From: Catajapyx aquilonaris | Lineage: Eukaryota | NCBI GenBank assembly: GCA_000934665.2 | Contig: JYFJ02001477.1 | Location: 58,722-78,721 of the forward strand | DNA length: 20,000 nt | Direction of reading: 5' to 3' | Notes under the pieces: model-generated | Seen by the model: the letters and a program-made list of their open reading frames with translations, nothing else | Database searches by the model: none | Told to the model about the DNA's origin: nothing | Program-made: the position numbers and the translations under genes | Shown here: piece after piece, positions 1-17,931 of the stretch | How the letters are laid out: each line of letters begins with the position of its first letter | Numbering within the stretch: position 1 is the first letter of the stretch

Positions 1-2299
1 CTTGCATGCCGTGAGGTTATCCGCAGGAAGTTTGAGCAGATGTTGACAGAGGAACATGGAAACAAGGTTCAGGATGTGCTGAACGACATAGTGATGTCAA
101 CAGTGAACACTTATGCGAACGAGGATAAACCAGCGATGCAGAGATCGTTACTTTCTGAGTTTGTATCTCGGCCTCATACGTGCGTCCCTCTTGGAAAGGT
201 TGGTTCAATGCAGAAGAGCTTGACATTGCCTATGATAATCTCACTTTATGACAGGGTAGTTTACGTGATTTTCTTATTTCAGAGCGGGCATCCAGATATG
301 ACTGTAATTACAATTGCAGACTTGCTAACAATGCTGCTCCAGTGCCTTTTTACGGACGACAAGGATTTCCCTGACGCCAACTTTTGGCGGACAGTAACGT
401 TGGACGAGGATGACCTCAAGTCGAAGGCTTTGCTTGGAGTTGTGGATGCATGCGGAGCCAGTGGATACATCTCGCTACGTGATGCGACAGGACGAGTCCC
501 ACTGCACGTTTTGGGCGAAGTTGATGTGACTAAAATTGAAGGACATGTGGTGCACCTGAAGAAGTACAGAGTGACTCGTGAAATGTTCCAGTTTGAACAA
601 GGGCCGAGAAAGCCTGCTGTGTTTCGCAAGTATGTCCAGGTAGAAGCGGAAGACATTGTCATCTTGAAACGTGCTTACAACCCCAACGCAATCCCACCGT
701 TACGTATTAACGATCTGGTGCAGAAAGTGTACCTCCATTTTAAAACACCTCCGTTCTTGCTGCTGGAAAATGGTGTGTACTCCCCTGTGTTTCTGTGTTA
801 CGTGTCCTTCTGCGGATTGGCCAGTGTTGCCCCTTCCAACCTGATTCTCGAGAGTGACTTTGTGTCAATGCGGGACGATACACGTAAGGGCTTGCTGCTG
901 TTCAAGGAGCTCCGATTGTACCATCAGTTAGAGCACAACAATGGGTACCTGGTAGCCGTCCCTTACGCAGGCGACAATCGCGTGTTCTACAAAAAGAAGT
1001 GAGTGTCACTGCAAAAAAATGCAGACAGTGTTACTGATTGTTGCTTGTTTGGCAGGTTCCAGCTCCCGATTTTGGATTCACTCGGAAGCATCCTGCAGAC
1101 AAAGGAGGCTGCTGTTGTACCGACGAAGGCCAGGGTATTCCCTCTGAAAGGGGATGACGAAGAGTCTCGTCTCATGCGCGGCAAGGAGTTGCTCAGCGTT
1201 CATGACGCTATAACAAAAATGGGTGTGGACGAGATGGAATCTGTTGTGGGCGTCTTGCATGTAAGGAAGCACCAGCAGCCCAGGTACCCGTATGTGCACA
1301 GCGCGACCAGAAGCTGCATGAGTTCGGACGACCACTACGGGATTCCAGGGAAGAAGACCCTTATACTGAGCGTTCGCGATGAAAACCTGACTTCCTCCGT
1401 CATCTGCTGCTACGTGTCTCACTGGGACAACACGCAGTATCCACTTGCGCTCTTGCCCGGTTCGAAAATCAGGTTGGACCACGTGAAGAGAAAGCAAGGA
1501 CGATCGCATCCGTACCTTCTGTCGACTCCTCTGACCCGGATTACTGTGCTGACCCTGCCTGTTGAGACCATCGTGGATAACGCTTTTGACGATATGTTCA
1601 ACTGGGGTCCTCACCGTTTCCTGAGCCAAGTGGAGAATATGGGCGCACGTTTTTGGTGTGTGGTGACGCCTACGAAGGTCATGAAACTGTACATTCGGGC
1701 CTTCTGTAAGAACTGTAAGAGCGCCGAAGTTAAAGGCGGGGCGTGCCGATATGTTGGGTGTCTCAAGCGGTACGACCTCAAGTACACAGTGAGATCAAAG
1801 TAAGTGTTTATTTTTTAACTACAATGTCGAGGATAATTTTTAAAAAAACGATTTGTGCTGCAGGGTCCAAGCACAGGATGGAACCAGGGAGGTTTCATTG
1901 TATTTTCGTGGCGATGCTGTTCGCGTGGTTCTCAACATGACCCAGCAGAACTGGACTCGAGTGCTGTCCCTTGCAAACGATACAGGAGAATTCTGCTTCC
2001 TCATGCCTGTGAGTGCCTTTCTCTGCATAGTGTAAATTTAGCACGTACATATTTATGTGATGTTTCAGGCTGCTGCGGATCGTCCCTCGTTGTCCCAGGC
2101 AGGGGCCGTCTTCTTAAAGTACACTGAATGCGGGGCAATATGGCATCCCATTGTCGTGGTGGCAACCAAGATGGAACATGGGGAGGGCACCAGTCGGGCA
2201 GGCAGTGGCGGACACCCTCTCCTGTCCGTCCTACATGCGGAAGCGCACAACCCAAGGAAGCAAGTTAAATTCCTACTCGCACAGCGCAAGAGCACTTGA
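1..2299 (+). CDS. CTC1: CST complex subunit CTC1, 3' portion (start lies upstream of the window); exons <1-198, 283-998, 1056-1799, 1864-2008, 2069-2299
   Basis: Four GT-AG introns (199-282, 999-1055, 1800-1863, 2009-2068; 84/57/64/60 nt) join the track ORFs in phase to a TGA at 2297-2299. The C-terminal half matches remembered CTC1 motifs: YPLALLPGSKIRLDHVKRKQGRSHPY (cf. [25 protein letters not shown]), a zinc ribbon FCKNCKS...GACRYVGC, VQAQDGTREV (cf. LVEDGTAEA) and WHPIVV (cf. LRPIVL). Confidence 0.88.
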
Positions 2300-5441: not shown

Positions 5442-7100
5442 ATGTCGCTGACCCAGACCATCAAGAAGGAAGCGGAGGACGAGGAGATCACGACAGAGGA
5501 GACTTGGCTCCTGAGGATCAAGGAGGAGACGCCTTCCTGCCTGGAGGAGGACCCTGGCTTCTTTGAAAGATACGCTTCAGGGGCTGGAGGTGTAGAAGGG
5601 AAGGAAGATGACGGCAGGGTGGCTGAGGTAAGCATGTGGATTACCTCCGTTAATCAGTATAAGGTTATGAGAGAGCATAATGTGGGATCAGATCATAACC
5701 ACAATATCAGAGGACTGCTCATTTCAGTACTTAATATGAAGATTAACTTATCTGAATGCATTTCATTTCAGCCGTCAGCAGGACATGAAGAGGAGGAAGA
5801 GTGTGCAGATGAAAATACAGCTGCGGACAGTGGTTTGATCTTGACCATCAGTGTCAAACCAGAGCCAGAGACACTGCAAAGTTCTTCCACAACGGAAATT
5901 CTTCAGAGCTTCAGGATGATAAAGCAGAACCATTCAGATGATAGTCTGGGGAAGGGAAAGGTGGGTCGCATTGAATTCGAAGCAGGAATTTGTATTGTTA
6001 AATATTTTATGCGATGATTTCATTCGTAGGAAAATGCAATCCAAGAGAGTGTGAAGGCACGGAATTCTTCCCCTTTCCTGGTCCATGGGATGGTTTTTGA
6101 TGAGGAAAAGAAGGCCATAGCCCACAGACTTGCCCACAGTACTTTCCAGTGCGATGTTTGTGGCAAGGTATGCAAGACTTTGGGAAATCTGACCAGACAC
6201 AAGGAGGTCCATCCAGGAGAGAAGCCCCACAAGTGCACCAGATGCGACAAGTCCTTCTTCTCAGAGCACAGGCTGCAGCTTCACATTTCCTCCCATGACC
6301 CTGATGGTGAACTCGTCTGTCACACTTGCAACATGTCCTGCAGCACAAAACGTGCTCTGCGGAAGCATATAAAAGTGCACCAGCGAATTCATGTTTGCAG
6401 TGTGTGCGACAAGGCATTTACAAGCGAATCTGACTTAAAGAGGCATGCACCTGTACATGTGAAGGAGAAACCCTTTCTTTGCGATGTTTGCAACATTAGA
6501 TTTAAGTACATGAAGGGCTTGAAACGTCACAAGAAATGGAATCATGCTGAGCAGAAGCAACTATTAAAATGCAAATTCTGCCCATCCACTTTCAAGAATG
6601 AGATGTACCTCAAGCGTCACTTGAAGAGGCATACGGAGTCAGGCTCAAAGAGAAGGTTCAGATGTACTCTGTGTGGAAAGGCATTCACTATGAGGCATGA
6701 TTTGGAAAGTCATGTTTGTACTCACACTGGGGAAAGGCCCTTTGAATGTGACGCGTGTGGTAAGGCTTTTCGTATGGCAAGGTATTTGAAAAATCACAAG
6801 TTGCTGCACATGGAAGATGAATCTCACTTATGCACAGAATGTGGGAAATTCTTCAAGTCCAGAAATGCCCTTTACTGTCACAAGAGGACCCATAAAAGTC
6901 CACCAAAACAGTTCAAATGCCCCCATTGTTCTAAGTTTCTCAGAAGGAAGGATGAACTAGAGGACCACATTCGGCAGAGGCACACTGGGGAGAGGCCTTG
7001 TGCTTGTGACATTTGCGGGAAAAAATTTGCAAGCAGAGATAATATCAGACAGCATGCTAACAGACACGGTAAGGAAAAGCCACCCAAATCCAGCAAATGA
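5442..7100 (+). CDS. C2H2 zinc-finger protein, paralog A (~481 aa; 11 intact fingers plus 1 degenerate); exons 5442-5627, 5772-5960, 6030-7100
   Basis: Phase-0 GT-AG introns 5628-5771 and 5961-6029 at positions conserved in the paralogs. Acidic N-terminus IKKEAEDEEITTEETWLLRIKEE...VKPEPE, repeated CxxC-x12-Hx3-4H with TGERP linkers. The first finger has lost its Cys residues (PFLVHG vs PCLVCG). The start ATG is inferred from paralog C. Confidence 0.9.
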
Positions 7101-7529: not shown

Positions 7530-9116
7530 CAAGCGGAGGAGGACGAAGAGATGACGACGGAGGAGACTTGGCTCCTGCAGGTTAAGGAAGAGGACCCTGG
7601 CTTCTTTGAAAGATATGTTTCAGGCGCTAAAGACAGGGTGGGAATGGAGAAAGGTGACGGCAGGGTGGCCACGGTAAGCATGTGGATCGTCTCCGTTGGT
7701 TATTATGAAGGGGCCTGTAGAGAGAGCAGATCAGAGGACTGCTCCTGATGATCGGCCTCTCCATGCATTTAATTTCAGCCGCAAGTAGAACATGAAGAGG
7801 CAGGTGTGGGTGCGGGTGAAAATGCAGCTGCGGATAGTGGTTTGATCTTGACCATCAGTGTCAAGCCAGAGCCAGACGCTTCTTCCAAAATGGAAATTCT
7901 GAAGAGTTTCAGGATGGCCACGTACAAGCATTTAGACAAGAGTCTGGAGAAGGGAAACGTGGGTGATGTAAGGTCACGTAGATTTTTAACCAGTTGCCGT
8001 GACAAGATCCTGCAGAAGTAGTCTTTTTATGATTTCTTGCTGTCATTTTTTGTAGGCAAAGGCTAATCAAGAGAGCAGGAAGGCACAGACTCGTTTCCCT
8101 TGCCCTGTCTGTGGATTGGTTTTTGATGAGGAAAGGAAGCTTGCTTGGAGCCCACAGATGCTCCCACATTACTTTCCCTTGTGATGTTTGTGGCAAGACA
8201 TGCATGACTTTGGGAACTCTGACCACCCACAAGGAAGCCCATCCGGGTGAGAAGCCCCACAAGTGCACCAGATGCGACAAGTCCTTCTTCTCAGAGCACA
8301 GGCTGCAGCTTCATGCTTCCTCCCATGTCTCTGGTGGTGAACTCGTGTGGCCTGTTTGCAATAAGACCTACAGCAAAAGACCTTCGTTAGTGGCTCATGT
8401 AAGAGAGCACCAGAGAACTCATGTTTGCAGAGTGTGCGACAAGGCATTTTTAAGCAAATCTGTGTGGAAGAGACATGCAAGTGTACATGTGAAAGGGAGA
8501 CCCTTTGCTTGCGATGTTTGCCACGGTAGATGTAAGACTAAGAAGACCTTGAAAGTTCACAAGAAATTGAAGCATGCTGAGCAGACGCAAGTATTCAAAT
8601 GCAAACTCTGCCCCTCCACTTTCAATAATGAGACATATCTCAAGTATCACTTGAAGAGACATAAGGGGACAAGGTCAGAGAGAAGGTTCAAGTGCACTGT
8701 GTGTGGAAAGGCATTCACTAAGAAGGGTAATTTGGAACAGCATGGCATGACTCACACTGGGGAAAGGCCCTTTGAATGTGACGTGTGTGGTGCGAGGCTT
8801 TTCGTTGGGCGAGTAATTTAAAAGAGCACAAGTTGCTGCACATGGAAGATGAATCTCATATTTGTGGAGAGTGTGGGAAATACATGAAGTCGAGAAGGGT
8901 CACGAGAGGAGACATATGATTCTACAAAAATGCCCTCATTGTGATAAAGCTTTCAGCTGGAAGAGTGAAGTAGAGGTCCACATTCGGCAGAAGCACACTG
9001 GGGAGAGGCCTTACACTTGTGACATTTGCGGGAAAAGATTTGCAGGCAGAGATAATATCAGGCAGCATTTCAAGGTAGTACATTGTAAGGAAAAGCCACT
9101 CAAATCCAGCAAATGA
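7530..9116 (+). pseudogene. C2H2 ZNF paralog B, 5'-truncated pseudogene; exons ~7530-7673, 7779-7958, 8056-9116
   Basis: Same exon layout as A. A 4-bp cttg duplication at ~8140 frameshifts exon 3 (stop at 8182-8184). It also has a +2 insertion at ~8792, a ~10-bp deletion at ~8898 and Cys>Trp in finger 4 (LVWPVC). It abuts A's 3' flank with no promoter-like region. Confidence 0.88.
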
Positions 9117-12450: not shown

Positions 12451-14838
12451 ATGAGTGGCGTCGAGCGTTCCTCTTTTTCTTCGACCAACGTGCTTCAGGT
12501 AATTAATCATTAATTTTGTTAATTAGGTGTCGATTTACCCGATAATTTCGTGGGCGGAAGTCGAAGAGGAAGGCGTGGGAAGACGGGAAAGGTAACGACC
12601 ACTGTAACCAGTTGACATGTGGTAACAAACCTGGACATAAACAAACCTATACCTTGGTCACTATTGCCAGTGTTTATTTTCCTGTAAGGTGACGTTTCAG
12701 GGATCCGGAAAGGAAGAAGTGAGAGGGCTGCAAGATTTCTGGCTGTATCGATGCACCCATCCTTTGGCTGCACAATGTCACGCCAGAGACCACTGAGATT
12801 AATGCCGTGGTTTAGAACAACCCTTCTTCTCTGCGGCAAAAAAAATGTCAAGGCTAGGTCGTCTGCAACGAAATTCACGGCAACAATCCACACTTGGCCC
12901 CACTGAGACATCACTTGTTGGGAAGAGGGTTTGCCAGTGATGAGGAGGTGAAGTTAGAGCAGGTTATCGCCTGGTTACGTTCACCTGCCCCGAAATTCTA
13001 GGCAGGGGATATAGAAGCCTAGGTGTAATAAATTGACTCAGGCATTATATCAAGCGATAACATTCACCATATCTTCAATATGAGTAAGTGGTGGGCTTCT
13101 GTCATTAAAATTTTCCAAAATAAAAAAAAAAGTTTCACCTTAGTTTCTGGACACCCCTCAGAGCTGTGATATCAGAGGACTGCTCATTGTGGTCCTGATG
13201 ATTGATCCGTCCATGGGTTTAATTTCAGCCCCCAGTGCCATACAAAGAGGAGGCGGAGGATGCGGGTGAAAATGTGGCTGCGGACAGCACTGGTTTGATC
13301 TTGACCATCAGGGTCAAACCAGAACCAGAAGCAGTCCGAGGTCCTCGCACAACGGATATTCTGAAGCGTTTCAGGATGGAAAAGAAGAACCATTCAGACG
13401 GGAGTCCTGGTAAAGAAAAGGTGGGTCATGTAGCATTCAAAGCAAAATGGTATTTTAAATATTAACGTGTTCATGACTTTAATTTCAGTTGTCAGTGACA
13501 AACAAAGACGAGGCAGAGGATGCGGGTGAAAACGTGGCTGCAGACAGTGGTTTGATCTTGACGGTCAGTGTCAAGCCAGAGCCAGACACAGCCCGAGGTC
13601 CTCGTACAACGGAAATTCTGAAGAGCTTCAGGATGGCAAAGCAGAACCATTCAGATGATAGTCTGGAGAAGGGAAAGGTGGGTTGCATGTCATTGAAAGT
13701 AGCCGTGGTAAAAAGTTGTGTTTAAAAGAAATCTATTATAATTTTTATTTTTTAGGCAAATGCAAATCGAGAGAGCAGGAAGGAGCACACTTCTGACCCT
13801 TGCGCCGTCTGTGGAATGGTCTTTGATGAGGAAAAGAAGGCTAACGCCCACAGATGTGCCCACATTGAAAAAAATACTTTCCCATGTGATGTTTGTGGCA
13901 AGATATGCAAGACTTGGTGGTCTCTGGCCAGCCACAAGGAATCCCATCCGGGAGAGATGCCCCGCAAGTGCACCAGATGCGACAAGTCCTTCTTCTCGGA
14001 GCTCAGGCTGCAGCTTCACATTTCCTCCCATGACCCTGGTGGTGAACTCATGTGTGGCATTTGCAAAAAGTCCTTCAGCGAAAGAAAAACATTTTTGGCA
14101 CATGGGAGAATGCACCAGGGAATTCATGTTTGCAGAGTGTGCGACAAGGCATTTAGAAGCGAATCTGTGTTGAAGACACATGCAAGTGTACATGTGGAAG
14201 AGAGACCCTTTCCATGTGATGTTTGCAACACTAGATTTAAGACTATGGGGAACTTGAAACGTCACAAGAAATTGATGCATGCTAAGCAGACACAACTATT
14301 AAAATGCAAATTTTGTCCCTCCACTTTCAAGAATGAGATGTACCTCAAGCGTCACTTGAAGAGGCATACGGATGCAGGCTCAGAGAGAAGGTTCAGGTGC
14401 ACTGTGTGTGGAAAGGCATTCACTACGAAGAGTAATTTGGTACAGCATGGCTCTACTCACACTGGGGAAAAGCCCTTTGAATGTGACGTGTGTGGTAAGG
14501 CTTTTTGTCAGGCAAGTAATTTGAAAGCGCACAAGTTGCTACACATGGAAGATGAATCTCATGTTTGCACAGAATGTGGGAAATCCTTGAAGTCGAGAAA
14601 GTGTCTTTACCATCACATGAGGAGTCATAAGATTCCACCAAAACTGGTCAAATGCCCCCATTGTTCTAAGTCTTTTCAATGCAAGAGCCTTGTAGAGGCC
14701 CATATTCGGCAGAGGCACACTGGGCAGAGGCCTTACGCTTGTGACATTTGCGGGAAAAGATTTGCAAGCAGACAAAATATCAAGCAGCATGTCAAGGTAG
14801 TACACAGTAAGTGCAAGCCACTAAAATCCTGCAAATGA
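12451..14838 (+). CDS. C2H2 ZNF paralog D (12 fingers, ~503 aa); exons 12451-12498 (tentative), 13229-13420, 13489-13677, 13756-14838
   Basis: The exons from 13229 onward are GT-AG bounded, all phase 0 and uninterrupted to TGA 14836-14838. Exon 2 is present twice. The first exon MSGVERSSFSSTNVLQ|gtaatt is in phase but less certain. No TEETWLL exon was found for this copy. Confidence 0.82.
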
Positions 14839-15094
14839 GAAAAGACTAGCTCAGGATTAAACTGTCACTTTGTCTTACATTTTGATGACATATTTTTCCC
14901 ATGTCATTGTTGTGCAGACATCTGAATTTTCTCAGAGGCAAGAAAAAAGTGCTGGGAATTCTCTTGAAATCAAATGTATTTGCAGCCATATGAGGAAATG
15001 TCACGAAGGGAATGTGCTATGAGAGACTTGCTTTATTATTTATAATTATGCAATCCTCTATTGAAAAGAGATATTTTCCTCAACTCTTGTCCAA

Positions 15095-15225
15095 ATTGTT
15101 TCGAGTCTCACTCAGGATCAAACTGTAATTGTTAGAGTTTAATTCTTATGTGTGACCATTCCCAAGCTGTGGCTGTGACATGGATTTTTGGACACATTTA
15201 TTTCATCTACTCAGGTTTAAAAATG
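15095..15225 (+). repeat. Extra partial copy of the ZNF 3' flank
   Basis: ttgtttcgagtctcactcaggatcaaactgt... matches the post-stop sequence of A (7105-), B (9121-), C (11840-) and D (14845-). Confidence 0.8.
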
Positions 15226-15239
15226 TGGTGTGATGTCTA

Positions 15240-15548
15240 TCTCTCTATATGAAGCAGAATCTTGGTCCTTACGTATATATGTCACAGCTACCTAACGCAC
15301 TTCGACTCCTCCGAGAGACCTGAAATTTGTCACACCAACGTCTTAGTCTTGTTGTTTCACGGAAAAGTCCTACATTGCACTTTTCTCAGTCTAAATACGC
15401 AAAACTTATGATTTTTATGGTTTATAGGTTGTGGAGAGCATTTCTCTTTTTTTTTTTGCACAGGTGGAACAAAAACAGTTTTGAGTGTCCCCAAAAACTT
15501 TTTTTCTTTCTTTTCTCATAAATCCAACGTATGTTGGGCAGCGACTAA
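15240..15548 (+). mobile_element. Probable short non-autonomous Helitron
   Basis: 5' a|TCTCTCTATAT start, internal ctgaaatttgtcaca, 3' hairpin ccaac-gtat-gttgg (15524-15537) followed by CTAA (CTRR) at 15545-15548. No TSD. The expected 3' flanking T is absent. Confidence 0.55.
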
Positions 15549-15650
15549 AATTAACAGTAATGATAATTATTTACCCTGATATTATACACGACTGAAAAAC
15601 ACGCTCACATCATCGTCACATTTTCATACATCTCATGTCTTCTGTCATCG

Positions 15651-15681
15651 ACAATAATAACAACAACAACAATAATAATAA
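15651..15681. repeat. (AAC/AAT)n microsatellite
   Basis: acaataataacaacaacaacaataataataa. Confidence 0.85.
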
Positions 15682-15785
15682 GGTAATGATAATCATATAA
15701 AAAAGTGAGAAATGTTTACAACTTCTGATGAGCTGTTCGACATTTAATGCTTGCACATTATGCACTGTAAATTCCGAAGACCACT

Positions 15786-16815
15786 TCAACTCGTAACAAG
15801 TTCCGCACTGGTCTTCCCAAAAGTATAGTTGCTGCAGGTGTCACGAAATTGATGCAAGTAAATTCTGTAAGTGACCAATCCACGGGCCTTGTCAAGGGGA
15901 ATTTCCGACACCTTCCATTTATTATAAGCCTTGGATGTCGTACTTCTGTAGGAACAACTCGTACATCTGTTTTGACACTTCGGACTGTAGTCAGGTGTCT
16001 CTTGGTTTTGTTGTACTTGTACGGATTGAAAGGAAGAGACCTGATGTGGTCTGTGATCAGCTGGAGTTTTGCAGGGTCTGTCTCTCGAGGGTTATTTCCA
16101 TGCTTCCCGCGCAGCTCTTCTGGCACCTGCTTCCGGCTCGCTAGAAGAGCCAGCCTCCTCATCCGTCCAGGACGCACGTTGTGGAGGGAGCAAAACGCCT
16201 TCAAACACACGACACTGCCACACCTGTTTGGGTACACTTATCATATATCAAAAAGTACTGTACACTAATTAATATGTACCAAGCAGGACAGTGTAGATGT
16301 ACGTAGCAGTCCTTGGGGAGCGTTTTAGTTGACTGTCACCAGTGCCACGCTTGCGACGGCGTAGTATTGGTGTTGTAGTGATGCAGTGTTGAAGATAGAT
16401 GTCCTGGGCAACTTTCCCTCTCTTTTGCAGCTGCTTGAACTTTCTGAGGATAGCTTTCCGTTTGTACGTGGGTACGGCAGCGAGACAGTTCCGGCGGCAT
16501 CTGCAAGTGGCGCACGGTTGACTGCAAATTCAGTTACTGCGTACCCAATACTTACCTGCAATCGTTATGTCTCTGAACGTTGCATGTACCAGGACGTAAA
16601 GGATCATTGGCACTGTCCACAGGCTCCAGCTTCTTGGTCAAGACCATTTCTTCCTCCTACTACTCCTTGACGTCATGTTTGGCCTCCATAACACTGATGG
16701 TAGACTCATTGCCTATGTCCAAAGTGGCCTCCTGCTTCACTTGCAGCAACCACGTCTCCTCTGTATCAACACTGTCTGCTGCTTCCTCCACCTCAGTCTT
16801 GACTTTCACTTCCAT
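15786..16815 (-). pseudogene. Spliced fusion gene: TEETWLL acidic module plus Sola-like transposase N-terminal region; exons 16815-16556, 16500-16280, 16223-15786; apparently disabled
   Basis: Manual translation: MEVKVKTEVEEAADSVDTEETWLLQVKQE...VKE**EEEMVLTKKLEP...HNDC|RCRRNCLAAVPTYKRKAILRKFKQL...QDIYLQHCI...RRRKR...RTATYIYTV|..VVCLKAFCSLHNV..GRMRRL...ELRGKHGNNP...ITDHIRSLP...RHL...SVK/QMYELF../..VTYRIYLHQF...NYTFGK...*. Introns are 55 and 56 nt, plus a 56-nt 5'UTR intron at 16875-16820. Lesions: TAG TAG at 16662-16657 and 1-nt frameshifts near 16280/16223, 15972 and 15935. The Sola assignment is from remembered motifs. Confidence 0.75.
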
Positions 16816-17030
16816 TGCTCTGAAAATGCACGTTATCAGTCTGCGTGCTCACATTTGCATTCCTGGACCTGTTACTTAAGTAACGGCTTCTGCTGTACGT
16901 TATTCGCGACTCGTTAAAGTACGTACTTTTCCCTTATACCTATGTTTTCCCCTATCTCCCTTTTTGCAGTGAATAAACCACAGACCACATTAAGCCTCAG
17001 TTTGCTTAACGCACCCTCTGCTACGGTCAC

Positions 17031-17901
17031 ACCACACACGTTACATTCAAAGGGCCTTTCCCCAGTGTAAGTAGTGGCATGCCTTTGCCAAATTACTCTT
17101 CGTAGTGAATGCCTTTCTGCACACAGTGCAACTGAACCTTCTCTCTGAGCCTGCCTCTGTATGCTTCTTCAAGTGACGCGTCCGGTATTCCTCATTCTTG
17201 AAAGTGGAGGGGCAGAGTTTGCATTTTAATAATTGGGTCTGCTCATCAGCAGGCTTCAAGATCTTGTGACGTTGCGAGTTCTCCATTAACTTAAACCAAC
17301 TGTTGCAAACATCAAAAGCAAAGAGTTTCTCTTCCACATGTACATTTGCATGCTTTTTTAAGTCAAAGTTGCATATCCTCCTGAGACCTGATGTCCAATA
17401 TATTGGACATCAGCAAAAAAAAAAAAAAAGTCAACTGAAATAGACGCACCTTTTTTTTTTTTTTTTTTTTGCTGATGTGTTTGCTGATGTCCAATATATT
17501 GGACATCAGGTCTCAGGAGGATATAAATGCCTTGCTGCACACTCTGCAACCATTTATTCGCTGGTGCACTCTTACATGATTCAAAAATGCTTTTTTTTTG
17601 TGTGTGCTGTAGGTCTTGTTGCAAATGTGACGCACAATAAGTTCACCACCATCTTAAGGAACATGAAGCTGCAGCCTGACCTCGGAAAAGAAGGACTTGT
17701 TGCATCTGGTGCACTTGTGGGGCTTCTCTCCCGGATGGGATTCCATGCGTGTGGAGGCTCAGAGATTTAAAATCCTTCTTGCCACAAACATCACACAGGA
17801 AAGCATTCCACTCAGTGTGGGCACGTCTATGGGCCTTGGAAGTCTTTTCCTCATGGAACACCTTAATTTCCACAGACTGGGCAAGGAAAAGAAGTCTGTG
17901 C
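17031..17901 (-). pseudogene. C2H2 ZNF paralog E, inverted exon-3 fragment (fingers 1 to the start of 9)
   Basis: The acceptor tag|gcacagacttc at 17901 is like paralog C's. Finger sequences are homologous (FFSEVRLQLH; CKLCPSTFKNEEY; CTVCRKAFTTKSNL). It has multiple frameshifts and a MITE insertion, is truncated at 17031, and exons 1-2 are not seen. Confidence 0.88.
17377..17520. mobile_element. 144-bp MITE, piggyBac-like CC...GG ends, perfect 41-bp TIRs, ATAT TSD
   Basis: TIRs at 17377-17417 and 17480-17520 are perfectly inverted; ATAT at 17373-17376 and 17521-17524. Excising it with one ATAT restores the finger KAFICNFDLKKH in frame. Confidence 0.92.
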
Positions 17902-17911
17902 CTACTAAAAA

Positions 17912-17931
17912 AATCAATCAATCAATCAATC
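17912..17931. repeat. (AATC)5 microsatellite at the point where homology to the ZNF intron ends
   Basis: aatcaatcaatcaatcaatc. Confidence 0.9.

Follow-up and report, generated by a model that had tools for sequence, protein, structure and literature searches.

Transposase capture is an established route to new transcription factors. The closest described systems are host–transposase fusions such as KRABINER, in which KRAB is joined to a mariner transposase, and the survey in which Cosby et al. present such cases (bioRxiv 10.1101/2020.05.07.082677) draws on tetrapods, with KRAB fused to donors of the mariner, hAT, pogo and similar kinds. A second point of reference is provided by the FiNZ and KRAB heads of clustered zinc-finger (ZNF) genes, as described by Wells et al. 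(2023, PMC10547256). Here we describe a unit of apparently mixed origin on the minus strand of a 20,000-nucleotide (nt) stretch of Catajapyx aquilonaris DNA (contig JYFJ02001477.1, positions 58,722 to 78,721; the whole stretch is hereafter the window). In this unit, an ATG exon carrying a motif of the neighbouring C2H2-ZNF genes is followed by transposase-like exons, with the first splice in frame. On balance, we favour the view that it is a pseudogenised member of a small, lineage-specific family of host–transposase fusions.

The locus resembles the KRAB-type fusions presented by Cosby et al. in that both place the head of a clustered ZNF-type gene, here a putative effector, before a transposase-derived region, with splicing apparently involved here too; a non-catalytic, N-terminal transposon part and a location in a ZNF cluster are also common to both. 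Several features set it apart. The head is a lineage-specific acidic TEETWLL module and not KRAB. The donor is of the DUF7869 type, and the main text of that preprint contains no occurrence of ‘Sola’, the transposon group to which this donor may belong (10.1101/2020.05.07.082677). The boundary between the two parts lies inside an exon, whereas the preprint reports distinct exons in all of its cases. Finally, the window copy is a pseudogene, unlike the KRABINER-type genes used for comparison. From its 5′ to its 3′ end, the unit comprises the following features.

16820..16859, minus strand: 3′ end of an upstream intron with acceptor ttttcag (AG at 16821-16820); likeness to other DNA copies begins at 16859.
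16556..16819, minus strand: coding exon 1, with ATG at 16815 and an acidic head, ending in ...QRHNDC plus 2 nt.
16501..16555, minus strand: intron of 55 nt, GTAAGT...TTGCAG, joining NDC to RCRRNC in frame and flanked by a 6-nt direct repeat, TTGCAG.
16280..16500, minus strand: exon 2, transposase-derived, (C)RCRRNC ... QDIYL ... RRRKR ... YIYTV.
16224..16279, minus strand: putative intron 2; a 56-nt version (acceptor 16224) is out of frame, a 43-nt version (16279-16237) is in frame.
15786..16236, minus strand: exon 3, transposase-derived, VCLKAF...RGKHGN...HIRSLP followed by shifted-frame segments; stop at 15788-15786.
15784..15813, minus strand: D-x-C-x-x-C relic DQCGTCYELK, in another frame just beyond the stop; the last recognisable transposase-derived sequence.

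An earlier sequence-only reading of this DNA had proposed most of this layout. The minus-strand exon with the ZNF exon-1 motif lies where it was placed, the 55-nt GT-AG intron (16555-16501) does join in frame to RCRRNC, and the motifs quoted for exons 2 and 3 are all present. The second junction proposed, 16280/16223, joins out of frame.

The descent of exons 2 and 3 was established by protein searches. A phmmer search with the exon-2 frame against 1.84 billion representatives (E ≤ 1e-3) returned six matches, five of them credible at 36-46% identity. Besides an unnamed record, the credible set consists of uncharacterised Nilaparvata and Homalodisca proteins. The top match, P0001 (E 1e-20, 12 stretches), was dropped as a tandem-repeat protein in which weak likeness is summed over near-identical repeats. 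A profile of the credible matches led to six longer, full-length relatives of 511-614 residues, four of which carry PF25273 (DUF7869); the domain occupies residues ~270-490. When a four-protein profile was run against the minus-strand frames with hmmsearch, exon 2 was matched at E 9.8e-15 (positions 34-111) and exon 3 at E 4.8e-12 (positions 119-191), which bears out the homology to an N-terminal, non-catalytic transposase region that the sequence-only reading had recognised. In tblastn, six of eight family proteins matched exon 2 (E 9e-15 to 3e-4) and three of eight matched exon 3 (E 9e-15 to 2e-8), with nothing else in the window below E 0.3. Across the window and five homologues, 15 columns of exon 2 are invariant.

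The DUF7869 proteins are transposase-like and come from insects and molluscs (P0012-P0015; Homalodisca, Callosobruchus and unnamed records). Exons 2 and 3 align to their residues ~50-260 and keep the invariant C, C, R, C, QD, RxR and Y, followed by VC..F, RGK and HI; the transposase motifs retained in the unit are CxCxxxC, the basic RRRKR, the helical VCxxAF...RGKH...HIxSF, and MYxLF...FG. Sequence comparison shows that the end of exon 1, together with exons 2 and 3, comes from the non-catalytic N-terminal part of a DDE/DDD transposase of the DUF7869 type. A word-indexed protein search with exon 3 against longer proteins gave nothing, and in the ESM Atlas exon 3 produced leads only, the best (0.91) to an unnamed eukaryote cluster and others to DUF7869 clusters (0.77-0.79). 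The family profile met only ribosomal protein L23 (E 0.6-0.7) in a sequence search of the PDB, and the term ‘DUF7869’ does not occur in the literature searched.

The catalytic part of the transposase is missing. Neither tblastn nor hmmsearch matched the family's catalytic core anywhere in the window, and Pfam gave nothing, PF25273 included, on six translations made from the exons and relics of the unit. PF25273 falls at residues ~340-490 of the relatives, which the window does not contain; the unit is a family-derived fragment and not a DUF7869 member protein. Compared with the DUF7869 proteins, it is without the DDE/DDD-like core of PF25273 and without the basic region before CxCxxxC, and it carries a foreign head. 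Its reading frame closes with a TGA (15788-15786) that follows NYTFGKTSAELVTS, shortly before the DxCxxC motif of the family and far ahead of the RNase-H-like core. The sequence-only reading had translation stopping just after NYTFG, and the stop is indeed there, but transposase likeness continues past NYTFG in the other frame as DQCGTCYELK, after which only low-complexity sequence follows. No terminal inverted repeats (TIRs) flank the unit in an inverted-repeat scan of 14800-17300, which found two short pairs (20 nt, 85%; 14 nt, 86%), neither of them flanking, and no TIRs or target-site duplication of a parent element were found in the window. On both the missing core and the missing TIRs, the sequence-only reading was right.

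Sola1 DNA transposons are said to have been described by Bao et al. in 2009. Sola cores were without a Pfam family in 2017, according to the account in PMC5751038, and the insect Sola1 elements described in PMC3845634 have an open reading frame of 630 amino acids, similar in size to the DUF7869 relatives. DUF7869, itself a recent family, has three acidic positions that are conserved, a point of possible agreement with Sola1. The Sola accounts consulted report target-site duplications and sizes, but contain no motif for comparison. It is possible that the donor family is Sola1; we use that name as a label only, DUF7869 being the family matched.

Structural modelling was in keeping with a nuclease family. 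The AlphaFold model of the full-length relative P0012 has a core order of beta-beta-beta-alpha-beta-alpha-beta, and Foldseek returned 20 matches for it at E ≤ 0.001, the matches listed being to Mos1 transposase, retroviral integrases and the IstA transposase. The model is weak, with a mean pLDDT (predicted local distance difference test) of 55.5 and TM (template modelling) scores of 0.13-0.17 by query. As modelled, the family core looks like a DDE/DDD nuclease with an RNase-H-like fold. The 83-residue piece from exon 3 was modelled as four helices (pLDDT 66); a helix-turn-helix is an idea only, and DNA binding a predicted role.

The host-like part is confined to exon 1. Translation from the ATG at 16815 begins MEVKVKTEVEEAADSVDTEETWLLQVKQE..., carries TEETWLLQVKQE, a motif of the plus-strand C2H2-ZNF genes (EETW at 16761-16750), and continues after two stop codons as ...EEEMVLTKKLEP...QRHNDC. 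In the six-frame translation of the window, ‘EETW’ occurs four times, in three plus-strand ZNF first exons and in exon 1 of the unit. The local ZNF N-terminal module can be written TEETWLL(Q/R)(V/I)K(E/Q)E, placed ~20 residues past the start in an acidic exon, and exon 1 conforms to this description. Over TEETWLLQVK, exon 1 and ZNF copy B are identical in protein across 10 codons yet differ at six nucleotides, all synonymous; because of these six synonymous differences, the match is taken to be old and once constrained, and neither chance nor recent conversion. By alignment, the likeness of exon 1 to the ZNF head is that of a short motif and not of a whole domain. The sequence-only reading had also compared MVLTKKLEP, at a later point, with the LILTISVKPEP of the second (VKPEP) ZNF exon, a comparison that fell away, there being no BLASTP local alignment at E ≤ 100. 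No zinc-finger exon lies downstream of the unit on the minus strand, a word-indexed search with exon 1 against longer proteins (E ≤ 1) found nothing, and the ESM Atlas held no usable match to it.

The position of the seam follows from the cysteine motif. In all relatives that reach the motif region, D-C-x-C-x-R-x-C is contiguous. In the unit, its invariant Asp and the first Cys of CxCxxxC are encoded by the two final complete codons of exon 1. Because this Asp-Cys pair is encoded in exon 1, the 55-nt intron lies inside the transposase-derived coding sequence and is not the fusion seam; the host/transposon boundary falls at some point in exon 1. In the relatives, CxCxxxC follows a basic region of ~50 residues; hmmsearch did not detect such a region in the window, where the TEETWLL head takes its position. 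The sequence-only reading had the ZNF module spliced to the transposase region; a contig without exactly these 55 nt exists (see below), but the intron is not where the two parts meet. The intron could be native to the transposon, gained, or a small insertion. We note that, with the TTGCAG repeat and the split DCxCxRxC motif, intron gain through a small insertion or duplication could be envisaged.

The copy in the window is a dead pseudogene, unable to make a fusion protein. As the sequence-only reading had noticed, it has two stops and frameshifts: TAG TAG in frame in exon 1 (16662-16657), and two +1 frameshifts in exon 3, one in an A4 run (15973-15970) and one at CC (15934-15933). Exon 3 is consequently read as three segments, each in a different frame, namely the first block, KQMYELFLQKY (15972-15940) and KAYNKW...YRIYL...NYTFG (15932-15816). 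At its 5′ end the copy breaks off 39 nt upstream of the exon-1 acceptor, at 16859/16860, where the DNA contigs described below part from the window on either side. Since other DNA copies share a different sequence beyond 16860, the window copy abuts a 171-nt repeat and a truncated ZNF exon and not its own intron.

Sister copies were sought in public sequencing runs. Five runs of the same organism match 15500-17000, none recorded as RNA; contigs were compared from two DNA runs (X1 and X2) and one run of unrecorded type (X5). One DNA contig over 15809-16215 differs from the window by 12 substitutions and lacks a single nt at each of 15933 and 15970; with these changes applied, the frame is unbroken for 135 codons across both frameshift sites. 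Variant contigs with a loose end at 16658 read GAG GAG GAG (VKEEEEEMV) where the window reads GAG TAG TAG GAG. Among the exon-1 indels of the variants, five of the six rows listed are 3 nt, although the rows at 16630 and 16631 are possibly one event.

Two X5 contigs coincide with exon boundaries. Record 18 joins 16502 to 16558, skipping exactly 55 nt; four letters at the joint fit either side, the window flanks share six (TTGCAG), and the joint is compatible with a GT-AG cut. At 16613-16626 this contig has five substitutions in common with a DNA contig of X1 in which intron bases are present, and no contig in X1 or X2 has the joint. Record 19 matches exon 1, apart from in-frame indels of -3 and +3, and parts from the window precisely at the acceptor AG (16821); the DNA contigs, by contrast, run past 16821 to 16859 and leave the window at 16860. 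The 30-letter upstream continuation of record 19 does not occur in the window; its sole approximate match has 8 errors and lies on the other strand at 825-850. Because these are two independent exon-boundary coincidences, we infer that run X5 is most likely RNA-derived. The ranges 15662-16363 and 16850-17011 are uncovered in X5; the putative intron 2 stretch is contained in two DNA contig records, and the X5 contigs do not reach it.

Taken as a pseudogenised relic of a fusion family, the unit has several observations to contend with. The likeness to the host is a motif of 12-13 residues only, for which BLASTP with composition correction aligns only WLLQVKQE (7/8 identical, E 0.002). The 56-nt version of intron 2 has no in-frame canonical join, and the only in-frame alternative is 43 nt long, with AG at 16238/16237. 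Between the window and the open variant, the ratio of non-synonymous to synonymous differences (pN/pS) is 0.57 (8 non-synonymous, 4 synonymous, p 0.31, a single pair), which gives no signal of constraint. The run that holds the spliced-looking contig is of unrecorded type, no run being recorded as RNA, and its contigs miss the stops (16634-16662), exon 3 and intron 2. Because the 6-nt direct repeat flanks the 55 nt, an insertion-free DNA allele would resemble a spliced transcript. The exon-3 piece has no Foldseek match at E ≤ 0.001 (best E 8.9), and its best VIA-align Z is 2.8. Lastly, the occurrence of several versions in the DNA runs, together with the sharp boundary at 16859/16860, would also fit a mobile chimeric element. 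All of these weigh against the fusion family, which nonetheless remains our preferred explanation.

With open and apparently spliced sister copies in the same species, the family may represent a piece of a transposon domesticated for regulation. An open member of such a family would encode ~308 residues, comprising the ZNF acidic head and the N-terminal region of the transposase, with no nuclease. The protein would keep the part of the transposase that recognises transposon ends while carrying the ZNF effector motif. By analogy with the KRAB-transposase fusions, it would sit on the ends of its cognate transposon or miniature inverted-repeat transposable element (MITE), where it would recruit whatever the ZNF head recruits or just block access of the transposase. 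A fuller version of this proposal, to which we attach considerably less credence, is that the species carries a small, expressed family of such ~308-residue proteins, with the TEETWLL head joined to the part of a DUF7869 transposase, possibly of Sola1 type, that recognises transposon ends, the proteins acting as a core-less repressor of cognate transposon or MITE ends, for example those of an ATAT-flanked MITE 0.5 kb away.

A transposon-borne chimera is one alternative. Here, a DUF7869-type element, non-autonomous or formerly autonomous, captured a fragment of a ZNF first exon, or its own protein has such a head in this lineage; copies would have arisen by transposition, and the transcripts would be those of the transposon. 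For every part of the unit, the DNA runs do contain several versions that are at least 90% identical; 16318-16457, for instance, is spanned by two contigs, one with 4 differences and one with 11. Contig depth summed over the unit comes to 28-135, compared with 10-20 for neighbouring low-depth X1 bins, these being sums and not copy numbers. Likeness to other copies ends abruptly at 16859/16860, and the 55-nt intron lies within transposase-derived coding sequence. However, TIRs do not flank the unit and a catalytic core is missing from the window; a TEETWLL-like head was seen in none of the 11 family proteins inspected; the basic region of ~50 residues that the relatives have before CxCxxxC went undetected; and the unit sits in tandem order within the ZNF cluster. 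We regard this explanation as unlikely.

Chance juxtaposition is about as improbable. On this account, a transposon fragment truncated at both its 5′ and 3′ ends lies beside an orphan ZNF first exon, any transcripts are noise that codes for nothing, and selection never acted on a fusion protein. The two stops and at least two frameshifts of the window copy, the non-significant pN/pS of 0.57, the want of a convincing in-frame splice at intron 2, and the fact that the adjacent ZNF exon is likewise a pseudogene, holding a MITE, would all be expected. Against it, one variant keeps an open frame through both frameshift sites and a second is free of the stops, the indels of the exon-1 variants are mostly in frame (5/6 rows listed), and the first Cys of CxCxxxC and the invariant Asp stand in frame across a well-formed GTAAGT/TTGCAG intron that is exactly absent from one contig.

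An assembly artefact, in which a chimeric join or indel errors produced the apparent fusion and its frameshifts, is very improbable: although both frameshifts fall in short homopolymers (A4, CC) and neither X1 nor X2 has a contig identical to the window over 15826-16185, there are window-identical DNA contigs over 15688-15825, 16583-16735, 16796-16888 and 16859-17100 and near-identical ones over 16186-16305, variant contigs link exon 1, intron and exon 2, and 12 substitutions accompany the two indels, which homopolymer errors cannot explain.

The fusion unit lies within a ZNF cluster. Four C2H2-ZNF genes occupy the plus strand, each with an acidic first coding exon, then a VKPEP exon, then a zinc-finger exon; TEETWLL is found in their first exons at 5496, 7560 and 10165. 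In the description of Wells et al., FiNZ-like genes have a short glutamate-rich N-terminus on its own exon upstream of the finger array and are arranged in tandem clusters, and the window ZNF genes show the same layout (PMC10547256). They have the VKPEP exon in addition, and the likeness to the FiNZ genes of that paper is one of description only. Ahead of the fourth ZNF gene (13223-13725, plus strand), the VKPEP exon is tandemly doubled (13313 and 13570), and no TEETWLL exon for this gene was found inside the window. In copy B (8795-8860, plus strand), the finger frame is broken after ...ERPFECDVCG and resumes ~30 nt on in a different frame, and the usual start of the first exon is absent; this copy may be a pseudogene as well. 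The remaining neighbours of the unit in the window are as follows.

17027..17912, minus strand: C2H2 zinc-finger exon, truncated and decayed (a pseudogene), found by blastn and Pfam zf-C2H2; directly upstream of the fusion unit.
17377..17520, strand not assigned: MITE-like insertion of 144 nt with perfect 38-nt TIRs and ATAT on both flanks; within the ZNF pseudogene.
16860..17030, strand not assigned: filler or repeat piece of 171 nt with a palindrome, CCGTTACTTAAGTAAC/GG, at 16869-16886; between the ZNF pseudogene and the fusion unit.
1-1803, plus strand: CTC1-like open reading frame; Pfam CTC1, E 1.6e-6, 26.4 bits, slightly below the cut-off.

The minus-strand ZNF pseudogene has 72-85% identity to the four plus-strand copies in blastn. 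Its homology ends at 17027-17031, ~290-340 nt before the ends of the plus-strand exons, and DNA contigs of paralogues continue as ZNF sequence at this break (loose ends 17030/17031). The MITE-like insertion within it has internal A20 and T20 runs, and the uninterrupted plus-strand ZNF copies have a single 4-nt site at its position. The target duplication of Sola1 and Sola2 is given as AWWT (PMC3845634, PMC3627910); the ATAT flanks of the 144-nt element fit this consensus, and the MITE and the fusion donor may belong to the same transposon group. The 171-nt piece, whose palindrome reads CCGTTACTTAAGTAAC(A)GG, is found elsewhere in the DNA contigs as a separate repeat with other neighbours, one of which has a similar palindrome.

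On the other side of the unit, 15500-15660 has a high summed depth in the DNA runs and ~93% identity to part of a 1983-nt X5 contig; it is a dispersed repeat adjoining an (AAT/ACAATA)n tract at 15651-15681. The CTC1-like frame at the far end of the window (~600 codons, intronless, one in-frame stop at 1000-1002) is either a processed pseudogene or a gene unusually poor in introns.

The window copy itself is a pseudogene only, and what the fusion means for the biology of this lineage turns on whether a live copy exists. If one does, a poorly known donor transposase family (DUF7869, perhaps Sola1) would enter the repertoire of host–transposase fusions, with a lineage-specific ZNF-cluster head, a putative effector, as the host part. 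If true, this would be a fusion from a superfamily unmentioned in the main text of Cosby et al. (10.1101/2020.05.07.082677), and a ZNF effector would have been re-used with a putative DNA-binding part that is not a zinc finger. Because the target of such a protein, the ends of its cognate transposon, would be predictable, the head could then be tested as a repression module.

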